Below the pieces are notes generated by a model, which was given only the letters and a program-made list of their open reading frames with translations, did no database searches and was not told where the DNA came from. DNA of 28,420 nt from the NCBI GenBank assembly GCA_014816205.1, contig GCA_014816205.1_4096.1. One strand, written 5' to 3'. This document shows positions 952 through 27,092 of the stretch, one piece after another (within the stretch, counting starts at the first letter, position 1; every line of letters begins with the position of its first letter). The stretch comes from a phage. Position numbers and translations under genes: made by a program.

Positions 952-980
952 GTTCATCAACCTCACATTTATTTTCAATA

Positions 981-1220: not shown

Positions 1221-1221
1221 G

Positions 1222-1667: not shown

Positions 1668-1876
1668 TTACTTTTAACCTCTTTCTGTAGAGCGTCAATC
1701 CATAGATCTACATACATTTGTTGATAGTTTGTGCCTAAGAGTGCACCTACATAGAGTTCAGTTACTAGTGCGTGCTTAAGGTTAGCTTGGATGCTCTTAT
1801 CGCTTGATATCATTCTCCTTCTGCTTCCACATGTTTTCAGGAGTCTGATGTATTCAAAGCCTTGTAAATTTCTCAT
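1658..1876 (-). CDS. small protein, paralog family 1
   Basis: ORF track; motif LLGTNYQQMYV. Confidence 0.55.
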   Translation of the reverse strand: MRNLQGFEYIRLLKTCGSRRRMISSDKSIQANLKHALVTELYVGALLGTNYQQMYVDLWIDALQKEVKSKCK

Positions 1877-2088
1877 ATTTTGGATACCACCTTGTTACGT
1901 AAGGAACTTAATAATACGTCAGTGTAGATGTTTTGATAGTTTGTCCCTACGAATACACCCAACTTCATTTCAGCTATTATAACACATTTGTCCTCTTGTG
2001 CAATAGATTTGTTTAACACAATACTATACACTTTTGATTTGATAGTTTGTAACCTCCAATGATACTGATACTCATTAAGGATTATCAT
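1873..2088 (-). CDS. small protein, paralog family 1
   Basis: ORF track; motif FVGTNYQNIYT; ATGA overlap. Confidence 0.6.
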   Translation of the reverse strand: MIILNEYQYHWRLQTIKSKVYSIVLNKSIAQEDKCVIIAEMKLGVFVGTNYQNIYTDVLLSSLRNKVVSKI

Positions 2089-2335
2089 TCTCTTTCCTCC
2101 AGATTTCGGTTCTCATGTGTTGGCAGTGTGCATCAATATATTGCTCTATCGATCTGGCGATTGCTGTTTTATCAGTGCCTGTCATCAGTACAAGCATCTC
2201 GGCCTCACAGTGAAGTAAACGCATGATATCATAGGGTAATATTTCAGATACCGTGTCATAGTGTTTCTGTGCCAGTGTCTGCAATAGTTTACAATACATT
2301 TTGTGATTTAGTCTTTGTCGCATTGTTTCTTCCAT
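2075..2335 (-). CDS. small protein, divergent member of paralog family 1
   Basis: ORF track; degenerate motif LMTGTDKTAIARS; start uncertain (alternative ATG at 2323). Confidence 0.45.
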   Translation of the reverse strand: MEETMRQRLNHKMYCKLLQTLAQKHYDTVSEILPYDIMRLLHCEAEMLVLMTGTDKTAIARSIEQYIDAHCQHMRTEIWRKENDNP

Positions 2336-2580
2336 TCTCTTCTGGCTTGGCGGGTTTTATCTGATATTTCGTTTCTCAATGCAGAGATATATCGTAGAGT
2401 GAACAGTTCTTGATAGTTAGTCCCTATGAATTTATTAAGATATACATCAGCGTTGACGATATCAGCTTCACGGGAATTATAAAGTTTATTGTTAGTGCGA
2501 AGGGTGTTTAGAAGAGAGAAGAGGGCAGTCTGATACTCAGTGCTTGATAAAGTTTTCATATTTTTCCACAATTCGTTCAT
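2308..2580 (-). CDS. small protein, paralog family 1
   Basis: ORF track; motif FIGTNYQELFT; start uncertain (alternative ATG at 2559, MKTLSSTEY). Confidence 0.5.
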   Translation of the reverse strand: MNELWKNMKTLSSTEYQTALFSLLNTLRTNNKLYNSREADIVNADVYLNKFIGTNYQELFTLRYISALRNEISDKTRQARREWKKQCDKD

Positions 2581-2734
2581 TTAGTTTTATCTGTATAAGA
2601 TCCATTAGTTGTTCAAGATAATCGGTACAATATTTCTCTTGATATTGGGTTCCCACAAAGTACAGCAACCATAGCTCATGAACTTTAACTTTCATCTCGT
2701 TCCATGAAAGTGCATCGTCCGTCAAGTGTTTCAT
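2537..2734 (-). CDS. small protein, paralog family 1
   Basis: ORF track; motif FVGTQYQEKYC. Confidence 0.55.
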   Translation of the reverse strand: MKHLTDDALSWNEMKVKVHELWLLYFVGTQYQEKYCTDYLEQLMDLIQIKLNERIVEKYENFIKH

Positions 2735-2889
2735 TTACATTTATCCCTTATTAGATTTGTGAGTGCAACTATGTGTTCATGGATATAAAAATTTTGATGA
2801 GAAGTTCCAAGAAAGTACAGCATCCATCCCTCACTCTGCTCGACTTCTAGTTTAGTATCGAGTTGGTCAGATATGTTAATGAAAACCAT
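2731..2889 (-). CDS. small protein (52 aa), paralog family 1; absent from ORF track
   Basis: Hand translation codon by codon: MVFINISDQLDTKLEVEQSEGWMLYFLGTSHQNFYIHEHIVALTNLIRDKCK; ATG overlaps upstream stop; TGA overlaps start of 2537..2734. Confidence 0.5.
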   Translation of the reverse strand: MVFINISDQLDTKLEVEQSEGWMLYFLGTSHQNFYIHEHIVALTNLIRDKCK

Positions 2890-3113
2890 TAGTTCTTTTC
2901 CTTTCTTTCTATTTGTTTCATAAGAACATCGATATACTCACCCGCAAACCTATTCTGATACTGCGTCCCCATGAATTCCAACATCCATACTTCAGCAACC
3001 TTTTCTTCAATTTCAGTCCATTGTAAGTACATCATAGTGAAGTAAATGGTGTTCTCTTTTTTTCTGGCACTCTTAGCACGGGCCTCGTATTCAAAGTTAT
3101 TAATGATGTTCAT
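2889..3113 (-). CDS. small protein, paralog family 1
   Basis: ORF track 2889..3146 trimmed to ATG at 3113 (track M1 is a TTG); motif FMGTQYQNRFA. Confidence 0.5.
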   Translation of the reverse strand: MNIINNFEYEARAKSARKKENTIYFTMMYLQWTEIEEKVAEVWMLEFMGTQYQNRFAGEYIDVLMKQIERKEKN

Positions 3114-3327
3114 TACATTTGTCCATAATGTAATTCTTGAGTGCAACTATGTGTGCAATAACATACTCTTCCTGGAAGTTCGTCCCCAGTACAGCCAACA
3201 TGCGTACATCGGTGGTGTTTATCTTGTGTTCCAATCGAGTTAAACCTTTTATTTGTAAAAGGGTATCGTATTTGTTTAATGCATCAATGATAATTCTCAT
3301 CTTCTCAATATTACTTAAATGTTTCAT
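3100..3327 (-). CDS. small protein, paralog family 1
   Basis: ORF track; motif VLGTNFQEEYV. Confidence 0.6.
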   Translation of the reverse strand: MKHLSNIEKMRIIIDALNKYDTLLQIKGLTRLEHKINTTDVRMLAVLGTNFQEEYVIAHIVALKNYIMDKCNEHH

Positions 3328-3536
3328 AGTTTACTCTTAATGTAGTTCTGAAGTTCAATTAAGTATTTCCCTACATAATACTCCTGAAAGTCTGTATCCA
3401 AAAATGCACCCATAAGTAAATCCTTCTCCATTGCCCTTGATAAGTTAAGGTCTGCATTTGAAAGGTATATAAGTAATATTTCAGTCTGGACAGAATTAAA
3501 ACGTTTCTTATATTCTTCAGGTGTTAATATAATCAT
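3324..3536 (-). CDS. small protein, paralog family 1
   Basis: ORF track; motif FLDTDFQEYYV; ATGA overlap. Confidence 0.6.
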   Translation of the reverse strand: MIILTPEEYKKRFNSVQTEILLIYLSNADLNLSRAMEKDLLMGAFLDTDFQEYYVGKYLIELQNYIKSKL

Positions 3537-3748
3537 AATTTGCTCCTGATGTATTTCTCAAGAGATGACAAATACTTTTCCTCATAATACTCCTGATAGT
3601 CTGTTCCCAAGAATGCACCCAAAAGTATTTCATTTTCCAATACCTCGGCTAAGTTTAAATCAGACGTCTCTTCGTATATTATGAGGATTTCAAGTTGTCT
3701 GGCAGCGATGCGTTCAGTATATTGATATGAGTTTTCTATAATAATCAT
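3533..3748 (-). CDS. small protein, paralog family 1
   Basis: ORF track; motif FLGTDYQEYYE; close paralog of 3324..3536. Confidence 0.6.
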   Translation of the reverse strand: MIIIENSYQYTERIAARQLEILIIYEETSDLNLAEVLENEILLGAFLGTDYQEYYEEKYLSSLEKYIRSKL

Positions 3749-3954
3749 ATTTTACTCTTAATATCTTCTATTAAAAATCGAATCCATTCTTCAACATAAT
3801 CTTCCTGATGGTTTGTGTTCAGTACAGCCAACATGCGGATCTCTGCTCTTGCAACTTCAATTTCAGTTTTAGGCAGGTCTTTGCTGATATCCACCATTAA
3901 GTCCATGTATTTCAAGATAAGACCGTATGATTGGGTTCGTGTTATAGTTTTCAT
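3745..3954 (-). CDS. small protein, paralog family 1
   Basis: ORF track; motif VLNTNHQEDYV. Confidence 0.6.
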   Translation of the reverse strand: MKTITRTQSYGLILKYMDLMVDISKDLPKTEIEVARAEIRMLAVLNTNHQEDYVEEWIRFLIEDIKSKI

Positions 3955-4151
3955 TGTTTCCTCGTGGACAATATTTTATTTTTCAATGTATCCATATATT
4001 GCCACACCCATCTACCCTGATAGTTTGTTCCCAATGTAATCAAAAGGTATAACTCCATTCGTTCTACGTGTGTGTCTGTGTTGTAAATCTTTACGTAGTT
4101 TTTACGTAACAGTGATTGATATTCTTCTTTATTTAAAATACGCATTTTCAT
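3951..4151 (-). CDS. small protein, paralog family 1
   Basis: ORF track; N-terminus MKMRILNKEEY; motif TLGTNYQGRWV. Confidence 0.6.
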   Translation of the reverse strand: MKMRILNKEEYQSLLRKNYVKIYNTDTHVERMELYLLITLGTNYQGRWVWQYMDTLKNKILSTRKQ

Positions 4152-4345
4152 AGTTTACTCGTTATATCTTCAATTAAATACCAAATCCAATCGTTGACAT
4201 ACCTTTCCTGAAAGTTAGTTCCAATGAATAGTGCCATAATTAATTCACGCTTATAGGCAATACCACGGTCATGGGACTTATACATTATCATAGCCATGTT
4301 ATTGATAAGTCTTTCGTGGTGCTGTTCTTTAGTTAAAATACGCAT
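4148..4345 (-). CDS. small protein, paralog family 1; first gene of the array
   Basis: ORF track 4148..4375 trimmed to ATG at 4345 with AAGGGAG 5 nt upstream; motif FIGTNFQERYV. Confidence 0.6.
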   Translation of the reverse strand: MRILTKEQHHERLINNMAMIMYKSHDRGIAYKRELIMALFIGTNFQERYVNDWIWYLIEDITSKL

Positions 4346-4375
4346 AGGGACTCCCTTAAAATTAATATCAATCAT

Positions 4376-4403
4376 ATTTTATACGATTCATATAAAAAGT
4401 CAA
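4376..4403 (-). promoter_or_regulatory. sigma70-like promoter for the family-1 array
   Basis: Minus strand reads TTGACT, 16 bp, TAAAAT directly upstream of the first array gene. Confidence 0.45.
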
Positions 4404-4594
4404 TAACATTTTATTCGTAATACCCCTTTATCGAAGTCGCTAAGGTTACCCGCCCTTTAGCCCCCTACGCATTTTGCCATAGTCCAATCCCTTTTATTTC
4501 AAAAAAGTCAAGGGATTACCTATGCATTTTTTTAACGCATAATTTTAAAAACGCCTTGACTTTTTTCTGAATCAGTACTAGATCACTTTACGCA

Positions 4595-11225: not shown

Positions 11226-11298
11226 ATCAGGGGAGGTTTTCTTATGTCTTACTCCTGGACTACTTAACGGGGTTACTTGTTTCGTTCCCCGTCCTGAT
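11226..11298 (-). promoter_or_regulatory. structured leader element, copy 1
   Basis: Closing stem ATCAGG/CCTGAT enclosing hairpin ACGGGG...CCCCGT; sits between two tandem minus-strand promoters. Confidence 0.4.
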
Positions 11299-11379
11299 GT
11301 AAAACATTATACTTGATTCTAAGTACAATGCAAGTACTTTTTTAAAAATAGTTTTCAGTACTAGCCACCAGCAAACAAT

Positions 11380-11466
11380 AGATACATTTATGCACCCTGT
11401 GGGCTGATTTGTTTCTATGCGTATATAATAGCAAAGGGACTGACCGGAGTCAATCCCTTTTTCAAT
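11380..11466. repeat. composite intergenic repeat, copy 3
   Basis: tgcaccctgtgggctgatt 11391-11409; hairpin 11436-11457 plus ttttt. Confidence 0.6.
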
Positions 11467-11471
11467 TATTT

Positions 11472-11621
11472 TTAAACTTGTTTCGGGTTGCGATAGGTGA
11501 TAGCGTTCGGGTACATTTGTTTAATGTTATTCCATGCCTGGTTAACATTGTAACCACTTGAGCGAATCAGTTGGTTGCTACCGACACCTTGAAACACTAC
11601 TTCGAATAAGAATTCTTTCAT
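11472..11621 (-). CDS. small protein (49 aa), absent from ORF track
   Basis: Hand translation codon by codon: MKEFLFEVVFQGVGSNQLIRSSGYNVNQAWNNIKQMYPNAITYRNPKQV; start overlaps upstream TGA. Confidence 0.45.
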   Translation of the reverse strand: MKEFLFEVVFQGVGSNQLIRSSGYNVNQAWNNIKQMYPNAITYRNPKQV

Positions 11622-11791
11622 GCTTTCACCTCGCTATCTGCTTTACCTTTACGCCAGGACATTACTAATTGTTCGCGTTGCCATAAGTCGAGTGATACAA
11701 AAAGTTTTGCGGTATCACTTTTAGGATACTCGCCATTAGTACCTAACCGATAAAACAGATCTTTCAGTACTGATAATTCTACTTGAATCAT
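11618..11791 (-). CDS. small protein (57 aa), absent from ORF track
   Basis: Hand translation: MIQVELSVLKDLFYRLGTNGEYPKSDTAKLFVSLDLWQREQLVMSWRKGKADSEVKA; ATGA overlap with upstream gene. Confidence 0.45.
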   Translation of the reverse strand: MIQVELSVLKDLFYRLGTNGEYPKSDTAKLFVSLDLWQREQLVMSWRKGKADSEVKA

Positions 11792-11880
11792 TTTATTACT
11801 CCTGATTGCGTTAATACTTCTACTATTGCATGAATGATCATAAGTACAGCTAAAACAATAATCATCGGATTCATTTGCAT
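11788..11880 (-). CDS. small hydrophobic peptide (30 aa), absent from ORF track
   Basis: Hand translation: MQMNPMIIVLAVLMIIHAIVEVLTQSGVIK; AAGGAG 8 nt upstream; first of three coupled small genes. Confidence 0.4.
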   Translation of the reverse strand: MQMNPMIIVLAVLMIIHAIVEVLTQSGVIK

Positions 11881-11897
11881 AAGCTGTACTCCTTATA

Positions 11898-12110
11898 TTA
11901 ATCTTTCAGCCAATGATCCTGAATGAATTTTTCGCCGGAACCTTGCTGCATTGTTTGTAACAGACGTTCACGATGAGCGGCGGCGAATTGCTCAGTACTA
12001 TGCGTTACGCCAGGCTGATAACGTGATACCCCATCCGGTCCGATGTATTGTACATCCCACGGTTTAGCGTTAGTATCAGACCATTTACGAACGATTAGTT
12101 GACCTTGCAT
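11898..12110 (-). CDS. hypothetical protein (70 aa)
   Basis: ORF track; GAGAGGAAAG upstream. Confidence 0.6.
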   Translation of the reverse strand: MQGQLIVRKWSDTNAKPWDVQYIGPDGVSRYQPGVTHSTEQFAAAHRERLLQTMQQGSGEKFIQDHWLKD

Positions 12111-12195
12111 TTTTCTTTCCTCTCAGTGGGGAGAATCATTTCTCCCCTTCATGTAACTTATTATACAGTACTATAATCTATTGTCAAATACTTTT
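12111..12195 (-). promoter_or_regulatory. PeSL-like promoter/hairpin cassette
   Basis: ggggagaatcatttctcccc hairpin; minus strand TTGACA...TATAAT. Confidence 0.5.
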
Positions 12196-12384
12196 TTAAA
12201 GTTTATGAATCAATTCTTTATCTAAGCGATAGCGTACATTATTAATGGTAACAGCATTATTTTTAATGCTACGCTGTACAGGTCCACCAGCAATAACAAA
12301 TGTTGCTTTATTACCCCGAACAATGATAGCACTTCCAGGATTACCGAAATCATCTTGTACTAAAATACTTGATAAGTTTTCCAT
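12196..12384 (-). CDS. hypothetical protein (62 aa)
   Basis: ORF track 12196..12390 trimmed to second ATG (12384), which has GAGGA at proper spacing. Confidence 0.55.
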   Translation of the reverse strand: MENLSSILVQDDFGNPGSAIIVRGNKATFVIAGGPVQRSIKNNAVTINNVRYRLDKELIHKL

Positions 12385-12462
12385 TTTCATTTCCTCTTAG
12401 TAGGGGAAGATGTTTCCCCTTGATGTAAGTACTATAACACTACTGAAAACTAAATGCAAGTA

Positions 12463-12819
12463 CTATGATAAAATCATGATAGGATATTCACTATCGATCA
12501 GTACCTCGAATCCGAAACCTTCGTACCATTCTTTAAGATTGAAGGCGTTATCTTCTCCTGTATCGCATTCTAAAATGATACAATCTGAATCATCGGCGGC
12601 ATCAATAAAGGCATTCATTAATTCGTTACCTTCACCATTGCCCCGACTATCAGGATCAACATAAAGAGAATCAATAAACGCTACACGGTCATAATCAAGA
12701 TCCGGTGCAATGATTCCACGTTTAACAAACCAGTACTGCAATTGTGCTACTTTGCCCTGTACTTGATAACCAGTGATCTCGCCATTGTCAGTAGTACGCG
12801 TGATATGTTGTATTCCCAT
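12463..12819 (-). CDS. GNAT-family acetyltransferase-like protein (118 aa)
   Basis: ORF track; RGNGEG resembles the acetyl-CoA-binding motif and WYEGFGFE the C-terminal GNAT motif; GAGGA upstream. Confidence 0.5.
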   Translation of the reverse strand: MGIQHITRTTDNGEITGYQVQGKVAQLQYWFVKRGIIAPDLDYDRVAFIDSLYVDPDSRGNGEGNELMNAFIDAADDSDCIILECDTGEDNAFNLKEWYEGFGFEVLIDSEYPIMILS

Positions 12820-12882
12820 GATTTCTATCCTCAGTTAAGATATAAAACATTATACACTATCTTTCAGTACTGTCAATACTTT

Positions 12883-13140
12883 TTATCTCATAGATCTATG
12901 CCAACAATTACGCGGGGGACGTTTAAAAGTACTATCATGATCCTCCTGGCAAGTTATGCAGTACTTACATCCCTTAACGGCCTGGCGTCGTTTCTCAGGG
13001 ATTATATCGCCGCAGTCGAGGCAATGTATCAGTGATTCTATTTGTGCGTTAATTTGCTTTCTAGCGTGGTTAACGGCGGCCTGAATCACTGCGTTGATCT
13101 CGTCTTGTTCGGCCCCGTCTTTCGCGTATCCTACTGCCAT
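12883..13140 (-). CDS. TraR/DksA-family C4 zinc-finger protein (85 aa)
   Basis: ORF track; CLDCGDIIPEKRR...CKYCITCQ matches the CxxC-x17-CxxC TraR/DksA zinc-finger pattern. Confidence 0.55.
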   Translation of the reverse strand: MAVGYAKDGAEQDEINAVIQAAVNHARKQINAQIESLIHCLDCGDIIPEKRRQAVKGCKYCITCQEDHDSTFKRPPRNCWHRSMR

Positions 13141-13471
13141 TATTTTAACCTCATTATAAAAATACTATAGTACTGTAATGCGACAATAATATTACTTGTT
13201 CTTACTTTTTCCAATCCACATGATACCACATATTCATCCCCATATGTGCGAAACGATACACCATGAAAATTTTTATACACTTGCACTACTAATCATAACC
13301 TTTCGTCTAACCAACTGCATAGAATTATACTACTTTACGCAAATTGATCAAGTATTGATCAGATCATTTTTTGATCAATATTATACAGTTACATTTGTGC
13401 ACCCTATGGGTTAGTGACGTTCTCGTCTTGATGTAAGTATTATGCCAGTACTGGATGATATTGTCAATAGA

Positions 13472-13669
13472 TTATTTTAATTTTTTTCTGTCATTGATTA
13501 ATGCTTTCAGTACTATACTAATGATTTGCAATGATTCATCAATGACTATAAAATTATTCTCTTTCATTAGATGATAGTTACCATTGATTGTATATTCTAA
13601 GGAGTACTGTTTACGTTTAATTTTTGATAATGTTTCTATTTGTTTTTGTACTGATTTCATGCTAATCAT
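13472..13669 (-). CDS. hypothetical protein (65 aa)
   Basis: ORF track; AGGA 9 nt upstream. Confidence 0.55.
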   Translation of the reverse strand: MISMKSVQKQIETLSKIKRKQYSLEYTINGNYHLMKENNFIVIDESLQIISIVLKALINDRKKLK

Positions 13670-13774
13670 TGTTAAACGTCCTGTAACGCATTCTAACGAG
13701 ATAAACGGTTTAGTACTGGCATTGTATAGGGTAATGAATTAAAGTCCACCAGCGTTAACCAGTGGGCTATAATC

Positions 13775-13918
13775 TTACATCTTGCGGATAATCTTAACAG
13801 TATCTTTCACCGATTTACCGTCCTGTTGACATTGTTCGATCATCGCGTATTGTTCTGCGGTCAGATCCTCGCCAGTTTTTGCCAGTACTGCGTCGATGAA
13901 TGAATCCAGTGCGATCAT
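13775..13918 (-). CDS. small protein (47 aa), absent from ORF track
   Basis: Hand translation: MIALDSFIDAVLAKTGEDLTAEQYAMIEQCQQDGKSVKDTVKIIRKM; AGAGAGAAATAAA leader; promoter cassette 13919-14017. Confidence 0.45.
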   Translation of the reverse strand: MIALDSFIDAVLAKTGEDLTAEQYAMIEQCQQDGKSVKDTVKIIRKM

Positions 13919-14017
13919 TTTATTTCTCTCTTAGGTTAAGTTAACTACTGTTTATAAAACTTATTATACAGTACTATCAAACGTTGTCAATATCTTTAAT
14001 AGTACTGGTAATATATT

Positions 14018-14197
14018 TTAGCGGTAATCGTCGTATGCTTTATTCACCTGGCGAATGTAACTTTCAAAGGCTTCGTCTACCGTTTCATACTCCCGAACAT
14101 AATCACCATAGGAAACTACATACATACCTTTTTGATCTTCAAACGACATGATGATAGAATCCAGGCCGATGATTTCAGTTTTTGCGATGATAGCCAT
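14018..14197 (-). CDS. hypothetical protein (59 aa)
   Basis: ORF track 14018..14260 trimmed to ATG at 14197 with AAGGA upstream. Confidence 0.55.
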   Translation of the reverse strand: MAIIAKTEIIGLDSIIMSFEDQKGMYVVSYGDYVREYETVDEAFESYIRQVNKAYDDYR

Positions 14198-14289
14198 TTT
14201 TAATTCCTTAGTAGTGTAGTTGATAAAAGTTATTATGCCAGTACTATCAATCAGTGTCAATAGCTTTGATAGTACTGTGATAATATTTT

Positions 14290-14502
14290 TTAGTTAATAA
14301 TAGTCAGTGTAAAATTGTAATCACCACAGCGATATAGCACGTTATTCCCAAATGTTCCAACTAATCGCACATCACACAAAACTCCGGTTTTTTCTTTTAC
14401 CTCCTTGATACTTGTAACTCCTGTAATATCTTTATTAAAGTATTCATGATCTGAAAATAAAACTTGTTTTGCATTTTTTAATTTCGACCGGATATTAGCC
14501 AT
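14290..14502 (-). CDS. hypothetical protein (70 aa)
   Basis: ORF track; start context AAAATGGCT. Confidence 0.6.
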   Translation of the reverse strand: MANIRSKLKNAKQVLFSDHEYFNKDITGVTSIKEVKEKTGVLCDVRLVGTFGNNVLYRCGDYNFTLTIIN

Positions 14503-14595
14503 TTTGTTTTCTCTCTGTTAGTGGGGAGAACTATTCTCCCCTTCATGTAAAACATTATACAGTACTATAATCTATTGTCAAACTATTTTTTAATA
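14503..14595 (-). promoter_or_regulatory. PeSL-like promoter/hairpin cassette (consensus example)
   Basis: Minus strand TTGACA, 16 bp, TATAAT, GTTTTACATGAAG, hairpin GGGGAGAATAGTTCTCCCC, then AGAGAGAAAACAAAATG. Confidence 0.6.
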
Positions 14596-14937
14596 TTATT
14601 CGAAATCTTCTGGACCGGACTGATAATCATCTTCACCGTATGCACTTTCTAACCGCTCGCCAGTTTGATCATCAGTTAGTGAGTCATCCTCATAGTTCAC
14701 GTCTACGCCTACAATGTAAAACTGGCTATCGTCTGGATCATTGAAATTAATTTTCTGAATGTTTACAATAACTGTATTGATGCCCAGGACACAGCCATCA
14801 GCCGTTACAAAGTACTGATATTTTTCACAACCGCCTGAATTGAAACCGTAATTGATTTCGGCCCGACCATCATTTAAACGCAGTGCCTGAGCGATGATTT
14901 CGTTTTCAAAGTTAGATTGAGCAATTGAGATAGTCAT
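14596..14937 (-). CDS. hypothetical protein with acidic C-terminus (113 aa)
   Basis: ORF track; AAGGA upstream. Confidence 0.6.
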   Translation of the reverse strand: MTISIAQSNFENEIIAQALRLNDGRAEINYGFNSGGCEKYQYFVTADGCVLGINTVIVNIQKINFNDPDDSQFYIVGVDVNYEDDSLTDDQTGERLESAYGEDDYQSGPEDFE

Positions 14938-15071
14938 GATTCGTTTCCTTATTACCAGGGGAAACCGTTTCCCCTTTCGATGTAAAACATTATACGCCTA
15001 TTGAGATAGTTTGCAAGTACTTTTTATCAAATACTTTAAAATAGTTTTCAGTACTCAAACATTATACAATA

Positions 15072-15160
15072 GATACACTCCTGCACCCTGTGGGCTAGTG
15101 AGCTATCTCTCAATGAATATATAATAGCAAAATGGCTGACCGAAGTCAACCACTTTTTTC
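15072..15160. repeat. composite intergenic repeat, copy 4 (variant hairpin)
   Basis: tgcaccctgtgggctagtg 15082-15100; hairpin tggctgaccgaagtcaacca 15133-15152 plus tttttt; arm changes preserve pairing relative to other copies. Confidence 0.55.
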
Positions 15161-15162
15161 AT

Positions 15163-15297
15163 TTATTTTTTAGCTTTAAGTACTGCGGCCTTTCGTGTCA
15201 TTCCTTGTTTGATGTACTCCTTTACTTTCGCTTTTTTAGCGTTTACCTTGTCTGCTTTCGTTTTAGGAGTACTGTAAATTATACCGTTAGGATTCAT
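15163..15297 (-). CDS. small Lys-rich protein (44 aa), absent from ORF track
   Basis: Hand translation: MNPNGIIYSTPKTKADKVNAKKAKVKEYIKQGMTRKAAVLKAKK; start overlaps upstream stop. Confidence 0.45.
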   Translation of the reverse strand: MNPNGIIYSTPKTKADKVNAKKAKVKEYIKQGMTRKAAVLKAKK

Positions 15298-15387
15298 TTA
15301 AATCACCATAAAGAATAGATAGGTTACTAACAATGCCGCGATCAATGCACCGACCAGGGCCGAACTGTAATAAGCCAATGATTTCAT
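15298..15387 (-). CDS. small hydrophobic peptide (29 aa), absent from ORF track
   Basis: Hand translation: MKSLAYYSSALVGALIAALLVTYLFFMVI; ATGA overlap with 15384.. gene. Confidence 0.4.
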   Translation of the reverse strand: MKSLAYYSSALVGALIAALLVTYLFFMVI

Positions 15388-15536
15388 TTTTTAGCCTGAA
15401 AGTAATGTTTAATTTGTGCGGCGGTCAGTGCACAATTACGCAGGAAGTTTTCTGTATAACTGCGTCGAGTACTGAAAGAAAATTGACCTTTGCCGTTACC
15501 GATAGTAACATCAAACCGAGCATTATATTGTTTCAT
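15384..15536 (-). CDS. hypothetical protein (50 aa)
   Basis: ORF track 15384..15566 trimmed to ATG at 15536; track N-terminus is the translated leader hairpin. Confidence 0.5.
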   Translation of the reverse strand: MKQYNARFDVTIGNGKGQFSFSTRRSYTENFLRNCALTAAQIKHYFQAKK

Positions 15537-15617
15537 TTTGTTTCTCCTGATAGTGGGGAGAATCATTTCTCCCCTTGATGTAAAACATTATACAGTACTG
15601 AAAACTAATTGCAAGTA
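15537..15617 (-). promoter_or_regulatory. PeSL-like promoter/hairpin cassette
   Basis: RC of ttgcaa 15609-15614 and attata 15587-15592 (16-bp spacer); hairpin ggggagaatcatttctcccc 15555-15574. Confidence 0.6.
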
Positions 15618-15764
15618 TTATTTTTTAGATTTACGCAAACTTTCTACCATCTCAGGAGTAAGGCCCGGCGGGTAGGAAACCACTTCATCAACGAAACGTA
15701 AAGGGAATACCCCAGCGAAAGGTGAACATGCTTTCTTAGTATTACTCTTTTTTGATGCTTTCAT
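15618..15764 (-). CDS. small basic protein (48 aa), absent from ORF track
   Basis: Hand translation: MKASKKSNTKKACSPFAGVFPLRFVDEVVSYPPGLTPEMVESLRKSKK; AAGGA upstream. Confidence 0.45.
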   Translation of the reverse strand: MKASKKSNTKKACSPFAGVFPLRFVDEVVSYPPGLTPEMVESLRKSKK

Positions 15765-15833
15765 TTCATATTCCTTAATTAGTGGGGAGTACTATTTCTC
15801 CCCTTCATGTAAAACATTATACAGTACTGAAAA
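15765..15833 (-). promoter_or_regulatory. PeSL-like promoter/hairpin cassette
   Basis: ggggagtactatttctcccc hairpin; same promoter module as 15537-15617. Confidence 0.55.
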
Positions 15834-16043
15834 CTAATTGCAAGTACTATTTGAAAGTAAATGCTCATACGCTGCATTAACTACATTTTCAATAACCGAC
15901 TGTACAGAAAGATCCCCCACGTCCTGGCTATAGTAGAAATTGCTTACAGTGGTGTCATCGTATGCAAATACTTTACCAGGTACGGCATCAATCACATACA
16001 TATTAACCTTTAAGATGTCGATCTTATCCTGTACAGTAAGCAT
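15834..16043 (-). CDS. hypothetical protein (69 aa)
   Basis: ORF track 15834..16157 trimmed to ATG at 16043; the track N-terminus overlaps a better gene in another frame. Confidence 0.5.
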   Translation of the reverse strand: MLTVQDKIDILKVNMYVIDAVPGKVFAYDDTTVSNFYYSQDVGDLSVQSVIENVVNAAYEHLLSNSTCN

Positions 16044-16044
16044 A

Positions 16045-16215
16045 TTACGCCGCCTTATCAGTACTGGCAACCGGACGGATACGGGCCATTTCCTGGGCTT
16101 GTTCCACACTGTAACGCTCATAAAGGCGGCATTCTTCCGGTGTAGGAACAGCATCAATACGCTTCATCGGTTTAATGATTCTTTCGATCTCATTCAGTAC
16201 TTGATTAACGTTCAT
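16045..16215 (-). CDS. small protein (56 aa), absent from ORF track
   Basis: Hand translation: MNVNQVLNEIERIIKPMKRIDAVPTPEECRLYERYSVEQAQEMARIRPVASTDKAA; GGGGA 7 nt upstream. Confidence 0.45.
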   Translation of the reverse strand: MNVNQVLNEIERIIKPMKRIDAVPTPEECRLYERYSVEQAQEMARIRPVASTDKAA

Positions 16216-16266
16216 GGTATAATCCCCAATATAAGCGGCCTAAATCGACCACTAACGATGATTTGA

Positions 16267-16536
16267 TCAATAGGTGTATGGTTGACGCTCAAACAATGAT
16301 TGCACGTTGTACGCCCCGCTTATGGGCTTCGCTGGCAAATCAATTTTATATTGTTCACGCTTAAAGATAATAAAACGGCAATTGTTTTTAACATCAAAAT
16401 TGATTGAACGTTCCAGGAGTTTACCATCGTGCACAAATACAAGATAACCGCTTGGTACTTGTTTTGTAGAACTGGTTGCAACCATAGACCGACGAACATG
16501 TGTACCTGCATCGATTAAAGTACTGATATTTTTCAT
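16267..16536 (-). CDS. hypothetical protein (89 aa)
   Basis: ORF track; AAGAGGAAAG upstream. Confidence 0.6.
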   Translation of the reverse strand: MKNISTLIDAGTHVRRSMVATSSTKQVPSGYLVFVHDGKLLERSINFDVKNNCRFIIFKREQYKIDLPAKPISGAYNVQSLFERQPYTY

Positions 16537-16616
16537 TTTACTTTCCTCTTAAGTTGATTTAATTTCTTTCCCCTATGCAGACACTATATCAAAGTATCTG
16601 CATAAAGTAAAGCTAA

Positions 16617-16940
16617 TTAAAGATCTTTTTTGCGTTTAACATTCTGTACAGTACAATGCAACGGGATATTAAGATCATTGCACAAACGATAGAGGGAGGT
16701 TTCAACAGTATCAAGCCCGTCTACTGATTCCTTTAAGAGTGATACCGCCGTTTGTTGATATGCATCCTCATAGCCATAAGTAAATGATTCAACCGCCAGA
16801 TCATTCAAGCCGTTATCCAGTTCAACGCTTACATGACAAGAATGATAAGTATTGCCATATGAATCAGTCCAACGTTTACCGTCAACATTGATTGCATGGA
16901 TTGCAGCCAGGGAAACGGTGTTGATGATAGTTTTAGCCAT
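16617..16940 (-). CDS. hypothetical protein (107 aa); paralog of 10200..10523
   Basis: ORF track; shared RWTDSYGNTYHSC and FTYGY and KRKKD motifs. Confidence 0.6.
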   Translation of the reverse strand: MAKTIINTVSLAAIHAINVDGKRWTDSYGNTYHSCHVSVELDNGLNDLAVESFTYGYEDAYQQTAVSLLKESVDGLDTVETSLYRLCNDLNIPLHCTVQNVKRKKDL

Positions 16941-16968
16941 TTTAGTATTCCTTAAATTAATATGTGTC

Positions 16969-17042
16969 GTCTTGATAAAATCTATTATGCCAGTACTATC
17001 AAACTATGTCAATAGTACTGTGATAATATTTTTACTTACTTT
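16969..17042 (-). repeat. about 74-bp direct repeat, copy A (promoter module)
   Basis: Identical to 17263-17336; contains RC of TTGACA and CATAAT. Confidence 0.65.
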
Positions 17043-17244
17043 CTTTTGATGCTTTATATGTTGCCACTGCCATAACCACATCAGCACGAACAAAGTTTTT
17101 AACCGTGTCAGTGTAGTAATTGATTGCATCGTCTACATCTGTGAACGTCCGATACATACCGCACCAAGATACTTTATAACCTTCTTTCACTTGTTCAAGT
17201 TTAACCAGTGTTTTGTTTACTTTAATTTTAGTAATGATAGCCAT
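17032..17244 (-). CDS. hypothetical protein (70 aa)
   Basis: ORF track. Confidence 0.6.
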   Translation of the reverse strand: MAIITKIKVNKTLVKLEQVKEGYKVSWCGMYRTFTDVDDAINYYTDTVKNFVRADVVMAVATYKASKESK

Positions 17245-17262
17245 TATTGTTTCCTCTTAGTT

Positions 17263-17336
17263 GTCTTGATAAAATCTATTATGCCAGTACTATCAAACTA
17301 TGTCAATAGTACTGTGATAATATTTTTACTTACTTT
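17263..17336 (-). repeat. about 74-bp direct repeat, copy B
   Basis: Identical to 16969-17042; the two copies flank the 17032..17244 gene. Confidence 0.65.
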
Positions 17337-17469
17337 TTTCTTTCTTAATTGCTTCCACCTGGTCGGCCCATTCTTTACCCCATACTTGTAAATTATAATG
17401 GTACTGGCAAAGAGCAACGCCCCGCTTTAAACCAGTAATAGATTTTGTACCACATTGACAAGTTTTCAT
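17326..17469 (-). CDS. small Cys-rich protein (47 aa), possible zinc ribbon; absent from ORF track
   Basis: Hand translation: MKTCQCGTKSITGLKRGVALCQYHYNLQVWGKEWADQVEAIKKEKSK; preceded by cassette 17470-17554. Confidence 0.45.
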   Translation of the reverse strand: MKTCQCGTKSITGLKRGVALCQYHYNLQVWGKEWADQVEAIKKEKSK

Positions 17470-17782: not shown

Positions 17783-18231
17783 TTTTTAATTCCTATTCAG
17801 TAGTTGATGTATGTATTATGTCAGTACTTAAAACTATTGTCAAACTATTTTTTAAAATTTATCAATGATTGATGCCGTTTCATTGATAGTCTTGCCGTGT
17901 TTTGCACACGCGATAACTGCTTTAAATTCCTTTGATGACCAATCTTTCTTGCTGCATACTGACATTACTTGTAACGTGAAACAATCCAGTTCATAAGTAT
18001 TCATCTTTAAATCCTCAGTTAGTTAAGGTGTCTCGCCTTGATGTAATTAATTATACGCTAATCTCTTAATCGTGCAAGTACTTTTTATTACTTTTTGTAA
18101 AATACTTTAAACACTCTCAATCGCTTTCTAACGTCCTTAACGCCACCAGCTAGGGCAATGTATCAGATAATCAGTTTAATGCGTTAGAATCGATTCTAGG
18201 CGGTGCTAGTGGACTGGAATACTATAGACAC

Positions 18232-23790: not shown

Positions 23791-23880
23791 CGTTTTAATC
23801 TCTCTTAATGTGTAGCGGGAAGTGTTCCCGCTCTCGATGTAAAACATTATACGCTTTTAAACATAGTTTGCAAGTACTTT
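23791..23880 (-). promoter_or_regulatory. PeSL-like promoter/hairpin cassette
   Basis: gcgggaagtgttcccgc hairpin; RC of TATAAT and TTGCAA. Confidence 0.5.
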
Positions 23881-24128
23881 CTACATGTACTTTTAAAATA
23901 GTTTTCTTTCTATATAGGAGTACTATTATTCAGTACTACCAACAACCAGGGGAACTATCTTTCAGTACTGAATCAACCAAATCACTACTACACCCCATAA
24001 AACGGCCTCAGACGCATTCTAACGCATTAATACACCTAAGCTATACATTTGCACCGCCACCAGCTAACCAGGGCTTTACAGACCGTTTAAACGCGTTAAA
24101 TTATTTTCAATTATTTTGTTTTTAGCTA

Positions 24129-24156
24129 TTGACTCAGTACTAAAAAAGCGTATAAT
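24129..24156 (+). promoter_or_regulatory. plus-strand sigma70-like promoter
   Basis: ttgact 24129-24134, 16-bp spacer, tataat 24151-24156. Confidence 0.45.
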
Positions 24157-24343
24157 TACTACATAGACGCGAGAAAGCGGATACCCCAGGGGGTGCCGAG
24201 ATCCGTCCAAAATTCATAAAATTTAAAAAGAATACACTCCCGCACCCTAGCAGGTCAACGCACTTTCTCAGTACTGAATTATAGTACCATAGTACGGCCC
24301 AGGATAGCAAGCAAATTAATTAAAACTTTTTTCATCCAGGGTA

Positions 24344-24371
24344 TTGCTTTATTTTTCCAGTACTGTATAAT
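24344..24371 (+). promoter_or_regulatory. plus-strand sigma70-like promoter (extended -10)
   Basis: ttgctt 24344-24349, 16-bp spacer, tgtataat ending 24371. Confidence 0.45.
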
Positions 24372-24468
24372 AGTTCCATCAAGTCGAGAAAGACTCCAGC
24401 CCACCGGGTGCATAGTTACGCCCAAAATTCAGTACTGAAAAAATTTTTAAAAATATCCGTCCAGGCCG

Positions 24469-24497
24469 TTGACATTGCCCCCAGTTTATAAGATAAT
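24469..24497 (+). promoter_or_regulatory. plus-strand sigma70-like promoter
   Basis: ttgaca 24469-24474, 17-bp spacer, gataat 24492-24497; points into the repeat array. Confidence 0.4.
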
Positions 24498-24594
24498 GAT
24501 TCCAGATTCAGAAAAATCTAACTCCAGATACTGCGGGGAAACTATCCCCACGCGGTAGGGGAACTATTGGAAAAAACAAAATAAAATTTTGATT

Positions 24595-24697
24595 TAGCCG
24601 TCTATACTTCCAGACGTGTAACCATCTAGCCGTTTAGCCGTCCAAACGTCTAGCCATCCAGAAATCTAGCCGTTTAGCCGTCTAGATGGATAGCCAT
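24595..24697. repeat. iteron-like array of 7 TAGCC(G/A)T units
   Basis: TAGCC at 24595, 24627, 24635, 24651, 24667, 24675, 24691; spacings all multiples of 8 bp. Confidence 0.55.
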
Positions 24698-24896
24698 CTT
24701 TACTTCCAGACTTCTGGAGGGCTAGACATATCTACGTCCAAAATCCATCCAGGGTAACTACGCCCAAAATCCGTCAGTACTATACCATAGATCTATCTTT
24801 TGAAAGGGAGTATTCAGTACTGCCATCATAGCCCTCACTATGTTACCCTAGGAGGATGAAGACTATCATGTAGTACTGAATACTGTTAGAGGGAAC

Positions 24897-24916
24897 CCAC
24901 CAGCACAAGCTGGTGG
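24897..24916. other. hairpin whose two arms are the Chi octamer and its complement
   Basis: ccaccagc acaa gctggtgg, a perfect 8-bp stem. Confidence 0.6.
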
Positions 24917-25100
24917 CATAATGATTTAGATTAAAATCAGTACTGACACCATTCTGTTAATATCAGTACTGTTATTACGATTTTCATATGAGGTTCAAAA
25001 AGATGTACCACCACAGGAGGAACTATCTTTTCTGTACTGTCTCACGACAGGAGGTAGAGTAAATGAATTGTTCGCAGCAACTCATCACCCTATGTAGAAC

Positions 25101-25128
25101 ATTATACAGTACTGAATCATAATGTCAA
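25101..25128 (-). promoter_or_regulatory. minus-strand sigma70-like promoter facing the repeat array
   Basis: RC of tgtcaa 25123-25128 and attata 25101-25106 with 16-bp spacer; no gene downstream for over 1 kb. Confidence 0.45.
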
Positions 25129-25746
25129 TAGCTTTCTTTCATTATTCAGTACTGATATTCTTGAGAACTACCCGACTACAAACATCATTATATCCCACAA
25201 ATCATAAACGTCCCAACGTAAATTTCAACTTTCGAAGATCCAACTTTTATTTCATAGGTACTCCAAAATTTTTAGGATCGAGATTTAGGATGGAGTACTA
25301 ACCAACTTTTTGCTGGAGCCTCAAGGGGTAATGGAATTTTACCCCGAAGGGTAAAGGGGTAATTGAAATTAAGGTGAAAGTAATAATTCAGTACTAATCA
25401 TTGCGTGATTACTTTTGATTACATTTGATGTAATTTGCAAAATGGAAAAGGAGCTTGGAAACTACAAAGTACGGCAGACTTCCTCTGCCTACTTAGTGAC
25501 ATATCAGTACTGCTACGTTCTTGATTAAACGTGAACATTCCTGTACTCTAGTACTCACCACTGATCACTACAGTGATTATAAATGATTACTTAAATGTTT
25601 ATATATGATTACTTATGACTACCTATGATTACGGGGTTTAGCCTGGGGAGAATCCTAGTGATCGCATTTGTCCAGGCTGAATTTTAACAATTCGCCTGTA
25701 CATAAAGGTTGTTCACTAGGAGCTTCCCCTGTCTACTTGTGTTTAA

Positions 25747-25938
25747 TTACTTCCTATATATAAGCATTAAGATATAGTAGTACTGATTATACTGTACATT
25801 CTCTTTAATATTATAAGGGTCTATAGCAATCTCGGTACATCTGTTAAATGCATATCTATTAAATGCCAGTGGAATTATAGATCTAATCCATACTTGTTCA
25901 TTTTCTTTTAGTTTACTTATATAGAAGTTTTTATACAT
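25747..25938 (-). CDS. small protein, tandem paralog family 2
   Basis: ORF track; N-terminus MYKNFYISKL, C-terminus LMLIYRK. Confidence 0.5.
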   Translation of the reverse strand: MYKNFYISKLKENEQVWIRSIIPLAFNRYAFNRCTEIAIDPYNIKENVQYNQYYYILMLIYRK

Positions 25939-25953
25939 AGTATTCTCTATTAA

Positions 25954-26136
25954 TTAATATGATAGTACTAGTGTTAGTACTGAGCACAATTTTTCTTTAT
26001 AGTTCTTAGGGTATATAGAATCTTTTATGCACTCATTGAAGTGCCATAGGTATAATCTTGGGTCGCATTCTTTATATATTCTTACGGGGACGAATGTTAG
26101 TTTTCGTATATAGAATTCTTTATGTTCTTTATTCAT
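25954..26136 (-). CDS. small protein, paralog family 2 (divergent)
   Basis: ORF track; KEFYIRKL near N-terminus. Confidence 0.45.
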   Translation of the reverse strand: MNKEHKEFYIRKLTFVPVRIYKECDPRLYLWHFNECIKDSIYPKNYKEKLCSVLTLVLSY

Positions 26137-26141
26137 ATTAG

Positions 26142-26327
26142 TTAGTGTCTGTATATAAGTAATAGTAAGAATACGTACTGCACATCTTCATCTTTAGTAT
26201 TGAGTACTGTACGTATTGCGTCATTAAACAAGAATATAGTACTTGGGTCATGAAAATTTAAAGGGGTTCTGGGTACGGCATGTTTGTAGTTCCCGTTAAC
26301 AAATTGTGTGTAGTATTCTCTATGCAT
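26142..26327 (-). CDS. small protein, paralog family 2
   Basis: ORF track; MHREYYTQFV ... LLLLIYRH. Confidence 0.5.
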   Translation of the reverse strand: MHREYYTQFVNGNYKHAVPRTPLNFHDPSTIFLFNDAIRTVLNTKDEDVQYVFLLLLIYRH

Positions 26328-26328
26328 A

Positions 26329-26514
26329 TTAGTACCTATATATTAGGGCGAGAATGTAGTACAATTCATATGGAATGTAATTTGGGGTGATCGCACACTG
26401 TGTATGGTAAATGAATTGTTCGGTATTTTTCTTATCCTTGATATCTATTGGGATTTGTGGTATAAGCATTTGGGAGTTTAGATCGAGATGGCTTAAGTAG
26501 AATTCTTTATGCAT
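26329..26514 (-). CDS. small protein, paralog family 2
   Basis: ORF track; MHKEFYLSHL ... LALIYRY. Confidence 0.5.
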   Translation of the reverse strand: MHKEFYLSHLDLNSQMLIPQIPIDIKDKKNTEQFIYHTQCAITPNYIPYELYYILALIYRY

Positions 26515-26523
26515 ATTGTTCTC

Positions 26524-26712
26524 TTAGAATACGAAAGCTAGGTACAGGGTATGATACAGTACTTGATTATAGTTGTAATAATTTATCACGCATTTAGTGC
26601 ACGTAATGAAGTAGTCTTTTTTGTAGTTTATTTCTATACCGCTAGGTTCATCTTCTAACAGATTACCTTGAAGGTGCGGAGGTAAATCTTTTATGTAGTA
26701 TTCTTTATGCAT
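26524..26712 (-). CDS. small protein, paralog family 2
   Basis: ORF track 26524..26757 trimmed to ATG at 26712 (MHKEYYIKDL); close paralog of 27093 gene. Confidence 0.5.
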   Translation of the reverse strand: MHKEYYIKDLPPHLQGNLLEDEPSGIEINYKKDYFITCTKCVINYYNYNQVLYHTLYLAFVF

Positions 26713-26713
26713 G

Positions 26714-26896
26714 TTAGTACCTGAATATAAGTAGGATAGTGTTATATAGCTGGTCATAACTACTACTATTTTCTATACTTCGTTCTATGCAGTTATTGAA
26801 TCCCAGTACTGCCAAATCGTTATCCATAGGGACTTTATATCTGGCGTAGTGTTCAAAAATGCTGGGGAGAAATTGTGTGTAGTATTCTTTGTGCAT
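26714..26896 (-). CDS. small protein, paralog family 2
   Basis: ORF track; MHKEYYTQFL ... ILLIFRY. Confidence 0.5.
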   Translation of the reverse strand: MHKEYYTQFLPSIFEHYARYKVPMDNDLAVLGFNNCIERSIENSSSYDQLYNTILLIFRY

Positions 26897-26897
26897 A

Positions 26898-27083
26898 TTA
26901 GTACCTATATATTAGTAAAAGGATGTGATACAGTACTCGATTATAGTCGTCAATATATATCGAGGATTTAGTGCACTGAATGAAGTAGTCTTTTTCGTAG
27001 TTTTTTTCTATACCCAATGGTTCTGTTGGTACAAGGTGTTGGAGATACATTGGGAGTTTCTCTATGTAGTATTCTTTGTACAT
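26898..27083 (-). CDS. small protein, paralog family 2
   Basis: ORF track; MYKEYYIEKL ... LLLIYRY. Confidence 0.5.
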   Translation of the reverse strand: MYKEYYIEKLPMYLQHLVPTEPLGIEKNYEKDYFIQCTKSSIYIDDYNRVLYHILLLIYRY

Positions 27084-27092
27084 ATATTATCC

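Follow-up and report, generated by a model that had tools for sequence, protein, structure and literature searches.

The stretch of phage DNA analysed here (28,420 nucleotides (nt); contig GCA_014816205.1_4096.1 of assembly GCA_014816205.1; hereafter, the window) carries every one of its genes on the minus strand and holds, mainly between 11.4 and 17.5 kb, a series of very short open reading frames (ORFs). Two of them encode peptides of 29 and 30 amino acids (aa), here called TM29 and TM30, which consist almost entirely of hydrophobic residues and which, together with their operons, are the focus of this report (Table 1). The original prediction had listed ten minus-strand ORFs of less than 60 aa as missed genes, nine in this interval and one, o2731 (ORFs are named by their lowest coordinate), outside it. 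All ten are present and begin with ATG, and the two hydrophobic sequences that had been quoted match the DNA exactly. The ten ORFs are genuine small genes; they were missed, however, only by the 60-aa cut-off of that prediction itself, as public databases already contain each of the ten products, identical in sequence, as a "hypothetical protein". Phage 121Q accounts for seven of the ten (gp300, gp299, gp298, gp291 and gp284, with gp287 and gp280 as close counterparts).

The coupling that had been described between these genes is found at the starts of o11472, o11618 and o15298 and at the 3' end of o2731, where start and stop codons overlap as ATGA. TM29 is thereby joined to its upstream gene by an ATGA overlap and to its downstream gene, o15163, by an abutting stop and start (TAAATG), TM30 overlaps the next gene by ATGA, and the stop of o16045 lies 1 nt ahead of the next ATG. 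Shine-Dalgarno sequences are good at o11472, o11618, o11788 (TM30; AAGGAG), o15618 and o17326, and weak at o13775 and o15298 (TM29). Among 16 ATG-initiated ORFs of 25-59 aa in the gaps of the coding strand, gene-like codon usage was found for nine of the ten listed ORFs as well as for 17852-18004 and 27968-28147, TM29 being the exception; by log-odds, the nine exceed at least 94 % of the antisense small ORFs.

The window belongs to the genus Asteriusvirus (121Q/PBECO4/G17-like, Rak2-related jumbo coliphages of 350-385 kb), genomes of which are 90-96 % identical to the 7-kb interval, and ten relatives, among them 121Q, G17, vB_Ec-M-J, JNE01, WPEC5 and UE-S1, were used to assess conservation. 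Preservation of the frames in relatives, a check named beforehand, was borne out, as the nine ORFs at 11.4-17.5 kb are intact wherever the segment exists. The ratio of non-synonymous to synonymous polymorphism (pN/pS) is 0.02-0.41 in frame versus 0.44-10 in the other two frames, third codon positions vary most, and synonymous alleles exceed the neutral expectation for eight ORFs (binomial P 8e-8 to 0.03). The product of o11472 is 100 % identical to its 121Q counterpart at 93 % nucleotide identity. PHROG families, all of unknown function, are available for six of the ten ORFs, with full-length matches (E 3.6e-40 to 1.9e-10) for o11472, o11618, o13775, o15163 and o2731; PHROG gave no match for TM30, o15618, o16045 or o17326.

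The position of these genes in the phage genome follows from the record of vB_Ec-M-J, in which 1-21525 is annotated as a direct terminal repeat. By alignment, position 1 of this record corresponds to window position 25493 and the end of the repeat to about 4445, and because both repeat ends map within the window, the window covers the whole terminal repeat. The ORFs of 11.4-17.5 kb are placed inside this ~21-kb repeat, at a distance of 8-14 kb from the physical end of the genome, and are transcribed inward; o2731 lies outside the repeat. A terminal repeat of ~21 kb is backed by restriction mapping in fEgEco12 and by PhageTerm in Sharanji (PMC13070987, PMC11895373).

A scan of the window for consensus sigma-70 promoters returned 52 promoter-like sites, versus 29.3 ± 5.4 expected. 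Five of these sites are perfect (12/12) and five more reach 11/12, and all ten stand on the coding strand. More than 25 cassettes recur in the window, each composed of an UP-like AAAGTACTTGCAA/TTGACA, a spacer (N16-17), TATAAT, about 9 nt ("TTTTACATCAA"), a hairpin, a Shine-Dalgarno sequence and ATG. The hairpin takes the form GGGGAGAA-loop-TTCTCCCC, with free energies of -11.5 to -13.9 kcal/mol (example cassettes at 15614-15555, 17546-17487 and 12187-12128). Stem-loops at the 5' end stabilise mRNA in E. coli, and by analogy the cassette hairpins, which lie a few nt from the 5' end, probably protect the mRNA. The -35 element of a cassette is often located inside the last codons of the preceding gene.

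Three of the small ORFs, o17326 and o15618 (both with hairpin and Shine-Dalgarno sequence) and o13775 (with a consensus promoter), have a sigma-70 promoter of their own, and the remaining ORFs of the interval sit in tightly coupled operons with terminator hairpins at their ends. In the TM30 operon, promoter and hairpin are followed by a 70-aa gene, TM30, a 57-aa gene, a 49-aa gene and the terminator; in the TM29 operon, they are followed by a 50-aa gene with its true start at 15536, TM29, a 44-aa Lys-rich gene and the terminator. With consensus sigma-70 promoters ahead of the transcription units, and with the interval placed inside the terminal repeat and read inward, the early region proposed by the original prediction is supported.

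Conserved non-coding modules at 11280-11475, 13290-13475 and 14965-15170 come after both operon terminators. They consist of a 12-bp hairpin with TTGAC, then TATTAT, so that terminator and promoter are combined in one, and then an invariant CCCAYAGGGTGCA, of which there are 9 copies versus 0 expected (6 of them beyond the three modules). Some relatives have annotated ORFs of 30-33 aa (AHRVxxCIYC) in these modules, which could encode a small RNA or a tiny gene or serve as an operator.

TM29 is found uninterrupted and with at least 90 % identity in all 35 matching phage records (tblastn). Its pN/pS is 0.14, and the seven aa variants (K2R, S3T, L4F, L11V, V12I, L15M and T22A) are all conservative. 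The best PHROG match reaches only E 0.005 (phrog_32088), and there is no NCBIfam or Pfam match. TM29 has been deposited as gp520c of phAPEC6 and is called in fEgEco12, JP4, WPEC5 and SD phages; the gene is without a call in the 121Q RefSeq record and in G17, and its counterpart in Klebsiella phage Muenster is also unannotated.

The upstream partner of TM29 is a homologue of 121Q gp286, whose true start (MKQYNARF) lies inside a mechanically defined 60-aa ORF, with promoter, hairpin and Shine-Dalgarno sequence directly ahead of the ATG. Homologues of gp286 are found in the uncultivated Rak2-like phage L016/L017 (Logan contigs; 72 %), in Klebsiella Alcyoneusvirus (54 %), in rV5-like Vequintavirus (49 %) and in Certrevirus (46 %). 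In two of these groups, the Rak2-like phage and Klebsiella Alcyoneusvirus, a hydrophobic ORF comes directly after the gp286 homologue. In L016/L017 it encodes 33 aa (MKKWLMLVLTYSTITITAAVMAVLAVFLFFTLI) and begins with TTG, 1 nt past the stop. In K64-1/RaK2 it encodes 38 aa, is annotated as gp442, begins in TAATG and ends in ATGA, and is 70-100 % conserved in nine Klebsiella phage records, and Muenster has an unannotated 38-aa ORF with a TTG start in a TTGA overlap, located in the PhageTerm-predicted terminal repeat. Over 23 residues, TM29 and the L016 peptide are 39 % identical (E 2e-4 in a pairwise comparison), and M1, Y7, A14, A18, F25 and I29 are invariant in an alignment of six sequences of the family. 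As read from the sequence, these residues include an interfacial Tyr and a helix-packing motif of the form AxxxA. At the DNA level, these lineages are no longer alignable. That an open, hydrophobic and coupled frame is kept in the same slot in spite of this points to a functional peptide linked to gp286, for which it constitutes strong evidence. This gene pair across genera and the absence of TM29 calls from some reference annotations are the only new points of our analysis.

The gp286-like family as such is common to Rak2-like, rV5-like and Certrevirus phages, with I12, N14, G15, G17 (IGNGxG-like), Y27, L32, T38, Q41, I42 and F46 invariant (alignment A3).

The same pairing might mean that TM29 serves as a membrane anchor or regulatory subunit, tethering a gp286-like protein that is possibly DNA-binding, with no host target of its own. 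Such a role would fit the overlapping or abutting start and stop codons shared with gp286 in every lineage, the retention of the pair across three lineages while the third gene changes, and the C-terminus of gp286, which gives consistent weak matches in the PDB to helix 2-turn-helix 3 of homeodomains (E 0.003-0.08). We nevertheless consider it quite improbable. The gp286 copies of rV5-like phages, CR3 and KP13-7 have no hydrophobic ORF downstream, so gp286 can act alone; the likeness to a helix-turn-helix (HTH) is weak, and an AlphaFold 2 model of the gp286-like protein, built on a 3-sequence alignment (pLDDT 63.5, pTM 0.31), was of too low confidence to be used.

With tblastn, TM30 is recovered from 20 records with an identity of at least 93 % and from 2 with 45-48 %. 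The latter, Turkey5 and A4, carry a diverged allele (MHMNPFIVVIAIMMAVQAVLEYLSKAGVI) in the same slot upstream of the gp299 gene and with its own promoter cassette; it starts with MHMNPFIVV, has M or I after IAI and E or V after QAVL, and ends in YLSKAGVI. At the DNA level the two alleles are 62 % identical, the protein replacements are conservative and hydrophobic, and length, M1, M3, N4, P5, the hydrophobic core, L23 and G27-V28-I29 are shared. Wider homologues were not found, as phmmer against 1.84 billion representatives returned only TM30's own cluster, and IMG/VR scans with both neighbouring genes returned only phage 121Q. The gp299-like neighbour has no relatives below 74 % identity.

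The original prediction had taken both products to be membrane peptides and had named transmembrane prediction as a way to examine this, and the calculations agree with it. In windows of 19 residues, the Kyte-Doolittle maxima are 2.67 for TM30 and 2.69 for TM29, and the apparent insertion energy (dGapp; scale of Hessa et al. 2005) is -1.13 kcal/mol for TM30 and -3.35 kcal/mol for TM29. The TM29 family ranges from -2.7 to -3.4 kcal/mol, and soluble neighbours from +11 to +12. Insertion of TM29 is strongly favoured, and TM30 is marginally hydrophobic. In both peptides a run of 17 or more residues is hydrophobic and the predicted insertion energy is favourable, which makes them credible single-helix membrane peptides. 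By the positive-inside rule, TM29 is expected to adopt an N-in/C-out orientation, with Lys/Arg2 at the N-terminus and an end inside the helix. In TM30 the N-terminus is uncharged, a Lys is present towards the C-terminus (K30 or K25), and the conserved polar residues H/Q17 and E21 lie on one helix face.

Small membrane proteins in a lytic phage bring lysis components to mind, be they holins, antiholins, or pinholin-like or spanin-like proteins. This part of the original prediction is not supported, and we regard it as extremely improbable. The genes stand under early sigma-70 promoters in the terminal repeat, and a charged C-terminal tail of the holin type is missing: TM29 ends inside its helix (...LFFMVI*), and the tail of TM30 comprises 7 residues with one Lys, which is replaced in 121Q (Q30). 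Pfam and PHROG scans of the ten ORFs, their operon partners and the ten largest ORFs of the window found no endolysin, holin or spanin family, and a single helix of 29-30 aa is, to our knowledge, smaller than known holins.

Type I toxins (TisB, Ibs, Ldr, Hok, ShoB) and a number of regulators (AcrZ, MgtS, KdpF, CydX) are likewise small single-helix proteins, and small membrane regulators act via helix-helix contacts, often through small-xxx-small motifs. TM29 and TM30 resemble both groups in size class and in their single helix, but differ from them in matching none of the families, in apparently lacking an antisense RNA gene, and in being phage-encoded and promoter-driven. If they were membrane-damaging toxins of the TisB/Hok type, they would oligomerise, dissipate the proton-motive force early in infection and thereby either shut down host metabolism or exclude other phages. 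A single hydrophobic helix of 29-30 aa would be suited to this, H/Q17 and E21 on one face of TM30 could line a pore, and several takeover proteins of phage SPO1 are growth-inhibitory on their own (PMC6873191). We still hold it to be unlikely. No type I toxin, NCBIfam or Pfam family is matched; TM30's sole sub-threshold match is to a non-toxin family, NF033695 (KPN_01571 family, a 30-aa transporter-adjacent peptide), an assignment that was rejected (17.5 bits, E 0.0025, cut-off 35). The consensus scan found no strong antisense promoter over either ORF and no plus-strand promoter-like site placed to read 11788-11880 or 15298-15387, although such a scan cannot exclude one. No face of the TM29 helix is charged or amphipathic, and the peptide stops within the helix; depolarisation within minutes would be expected to hurt a phage that has to replicate 350 kb. 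Specific binding accounts better for the conservation of AxxxA and for the constant pairing with a soluble partner.

The explanation towards which we lean, at slightly better than even confidence, is that the ORFs are translated immediate-early host-takeover genes, two of which would encode inner-membrane helices that bind a host membrane partner. Host sigma-70 RNA polymerase would read the terminal-repeat genes from repeated strong promoters by the genome end, the 5' hairpin would likely stabilise the mRNA of many units, and translational coupling would join the genes within each unit. TM29 would be made by coupling to the gp286-like gene and may work together with its product or on the same target. 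Both peptides would act by binding, helix to helix, a protein or complex of the host's inner membrane, with division or cell-wall synthesis, transport, and the entry of a second phage as candidate processes. The roles as host-membrane effectors or as products toxic to the host that had been suggested are plausible by analogy only.

Two one-helix peptides are ordinary for a host-takeover region of a phage. The terminal host-takeover module of SPO1 contains small, early and strongly expressed genes, several of which are growth-inhibitory (PMC6873191). One of its products, gp56, has a single transmembrane domain (TMD), inhibits division and binds DivIC/FtsL (bioRxiv 10.1101/2020.02.06.938217). 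The window resembles this module in that a terminal repeat is packed with small genes, in the early, strong promoters of host type and the ribosome-binding sites ahead of them, in its short operons and in its predicted single-TMD proteins; it differs in lacking sequence similarity and in the Gram-negative host. Unlike gp56, which needs its C-terminal extracellular domain, the peptides of 29-30 aa have almost no extramembrane part. The staphylococcal phage PhiNM1 expresses early a small membrane protein, Gp11, whose binding partners are MurG and DivIC (PMC11237401). TM29 and TM30 would share with Gp11 its small size, its early expression and its action on membrane-associated host proteins, but there is no homology and the host is another. 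Closer to the phages considered here, CPT_Muenster_023, 029 and 036 are also encoded in the terminal repeat of a Rak2-like phage, have 35-42 aa and one TMD by TMHMM; their sequences are different, and the TM29 counterpart of Muenster is not among them, being unannotated.

A further likeness concerns phage T5. The pre-early (first-step-transfer) genes of T5 lie in a 10-kb terminal repeat, are driven by very strong sigma-70 promoters and are expressed first. As in T5, where this is the end that enters first, the repeat-borne genes of the window are transcribed inward from the genome end, and many small genes with host-type promoters and ribosome-binding sites are present; unlike in T5, two-step DNA transfer is not known from Asteriusvirus, and the proteins scanned include no homologue of A1, A2 or Dmp. 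As a long shot, TM29 and the gp286-like protein might form a conserved two-part early device of Rak2-like jumbo phages, similar in function to A1/A2, in which the peptide would tether a small HTH DNA-binding protein to the inner membrane at the entering repeat and so control stepwise entry, protection or early-promoter shut-off of the 350-kb genome; this device might read the hexamer AGTACT, which abounds in the repeat (see below).

Several observations weigh against immediate-early takeover genes with membrane-binding helices. The Shine-Dalgarno sequence of TM29 is reduced to AGG, its codon score is -0.03, a value that 22 % of antisense ORFs also reach and that is expected for an all-hydrophobic peptide, and its synonymous excess within the genus attains only P=0.052. 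Hydrophobic ORFs also arise by chance, with 14 on the T-rich antisense strand; the coding strand has 6, of which only TM29 and TM30 lie in gaps, and hydrophobicity alone is weak evidence for a gene. Four of the ten relatives (JNE01, vB_Ec-M-J, WPEC5 and UE-S1) lack TM30 and carry a promoter cassette instead, which makes it an accessory, dispensable gene. The Turkey5 allele of TM30, at a dGapp of +1.39 kcal/mol, is marginal for insertion, and the U-tracts of the terminators are short. No homology of the ORFs to any characterised protein was found, so target and effect are argued by analogy, and literature searches on the early genes of Asteriusvirus turned up neither a transcriptome or Ribo-seq study nor functional work.

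Some of these points, namely the neutral codon usage, weak Shine-Dalgarno sequence and marginal within-genus test of TM29, the frequency of chance hydrophobic ORFs in this composition and the replaceable TM30, could also suggest that the hydrophobic ORFs, TM29 especially, are chance ORFs, or spacer or upstream-ORF elements which only couple ribosomes to the next gene. This we judge very unlikely, as the frame is open and hydrophobic in four non-aligning lineages with the Tyr, AxxxA and Phe invariant, the aa variants of TM29 are without exception conservative, and the TM30 alleles retain length, MxMNP, hydrophobic core and GVI despite their low DNA identity. The hexamer AGTACT occurs in neither ORF, so a constraint at the DNA level does not explain their conservation.

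The neighbourhood of both operons comprises further small genes (Table 1). Four conserved genes of less than 60 aa beyond the ten were noted (13140-13286, 14018-14197, 15384-15536 and 17852-18004). The product of o15163 corresponds to the 45-aa gp287 of 121Q. The gene o16045 occurs as a 56-aa allele in the window, 121Q, UE-S1 and A4 and as a 90-aa allele in most relatives; the two part after about residue 44, which amounts to in-gene mosaicism in the repeat. The conserved C4, C6, C21 and H24 of the o17326 product possibly form a zinc knuckle. Similar endings (GK[ST][VI]x[DE]T..II.K) had suggested paralogy between o13775 and 17852-18004, for which BLASTP gave no support. Among the ten largest ORFs of the window, Pfam/PHROG matches identify as neighbours a GNAT acetyltransferase, a DksA/TraR zinc-finger protein and, weakly, a kinase-like protein, and no tRNA and no Rfam family at gathering threshold were found anywhere in the window.

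Table 1. Small genes and regulatory features of the window (promoters, hairpins and terminators as predicted from the DNA).
Feature	Coordinates	Strand	Description
TM30 operon terminator-like 12-bp hairpin	11433..11460	-	-19.5 kcal/mol, z -5.2
49-aa soluble protein (o11472)	11472..11621	-	121Q gp300, phrog_37188; last gene of TM30 operon
57-aa soluble protein (o11618)	11618..11791	-	121Q gp299, phrog_10572; coupled downstream of TM30
TM30, 30-aa hydrophobic peptide (o11788)	11788..11880	-	MQMNPMIIVLAVLMIIHAIVEVLTQSGVIK; 121Q gp298, G17_00022
70-aa protein	11898..12110	-	gp297, phrog_13428; opens TM30 operon
TM30 operon 5' hairpin	12147-12128	-	
TM30 operon promoter	12187-12160	-	TTGACA-N16-TATAAT
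48-aa gene	13140-13286	-	GTG/TTG start; 121Q gp293; two diverged alleles
Terminator of o13775	13765-13746	-	own terminator
47-aa acidic protein (o13775)	13775..13918	-	gp291, phrog_34103; pN/pS 0.02
Promoter of o13775	13990-13963	-	own consensus promoter
59-aa gene	14018-14197	-	true ATG inside 80-aa TTG ORF
TM29 operon terminator-like 12-bp hairpin	15129..15156	-	-15.9 kcal/mol, z -4.9
44-aa Lys-rich protein (o15163)	15163..15297	-	net charge +11, phrog_29913; closes TM29 operon
TM29, predicted 29-aa single-helix membrane peptide (o15298)	15298..15387	-	MKSLAYYSSALVGALIAALLVTYLFFMVI; middle gene of 3-gene operon
gp286-like 50-aa partner	15384..15536	-	121Q gp286, phrog_7119 (E 7e-28); first gene of TM29 operon
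TM29 operon 5' hairpin	15574-15555	-	GGGGAGAAATGATTCTCCCC; -13.9 kcal/mol, z -3.3
TM29 operon promoter	15614-15587	-	TTGCAA-N16-TATAAT
48-aa basic protein (o15618)	15618..15764	-	G17_00034; own promoter 15843-15816, hairpin 15803-15784, Shine-Dalgarno sequence
56-aa protein (o16045)	16045..16215	-	gp284; co-transcribed with 16267-16536 and 15834-16043
47-aa protein (o17326)	17326..17469	-	gp280; own promoter 17546-17519, hairpin 17506-17487, Shine-Dalgarno sequence
50-aa gene	17852-18004	-	gp278
52-aa protein (o2731)	2731..2889	-	phrog_4148; outside terminal repeat

Two tandem arrays of paralogous genes, both with pairwise identities of 22-60 %, flank the repeat. One, at 1-4375, just inside the unique region, comprises ~20 copies of a ~70-aa family, of which o2731 is a shortened member, and the other, at 25747-27356, lies beyond the mapped terminus and comprises ~8 copies of a ~60-aa family. 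Next to the mapped genome end, neither strand of a ~1.6-kb segment (23850-25493) has an ORF that reaches 60 aa; vB_Ec-M-J has no annotated coding sequence there, the AT skew switches sign, and CAGTACTG is repeated 8 times within 0.9 kb (24269-25154). The deposited proteins HAO2059680.1 and HAO2059684.1, which are the sole exact matches of two products, stand under an "E. coli" third-party-annotation (TPA) assembly, on a 28,420-bp contig that is presumably the window itself and in which both genes are therefore already called; jumbo-phage DNA thus appears to sit inside a bacterial TPA assembly.

The window contains 156 copies of the palindrome AGTACT, 17-fold more than the 9.3 that its base composition predicts, whereas no other palindromic hexamer exceeds 2.8-fold, and there are 37 copies of CAGTACTG versus 0.32 in shuffles. 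AGTACT is missing from 1-4573 and has a density of ~6.5 per kb exactly from the inner end of the repeat to the end of the window (4574-28420); 71 copies lie within coding sequence, by eye in different reading frames. In Muenster (L025, 1-45000), there are 13-26 copies per 2.5 kb in the repeat and 4-8 beyond it, with 0.84 expected. A literature search found no paper mentioning this pattern, and AGTACT may be a protein-binding or modification site.

For the annotation of jumbo phages, the analysis shows that a cut-off of 60 aa badly under-calls the genes of terminal repeats, as at least 13 conserved genes of less than 60 aa lie in or just beside the 6-kb interval. If TM29 and TM30 do bind host inner-membrane machinery, they would be minimal inhibitors or modulators of 29-30 aa, each a possible probe or antibacterial lead, and they would add Gram-negative examples to the few characterised early membrane effectors of phages.

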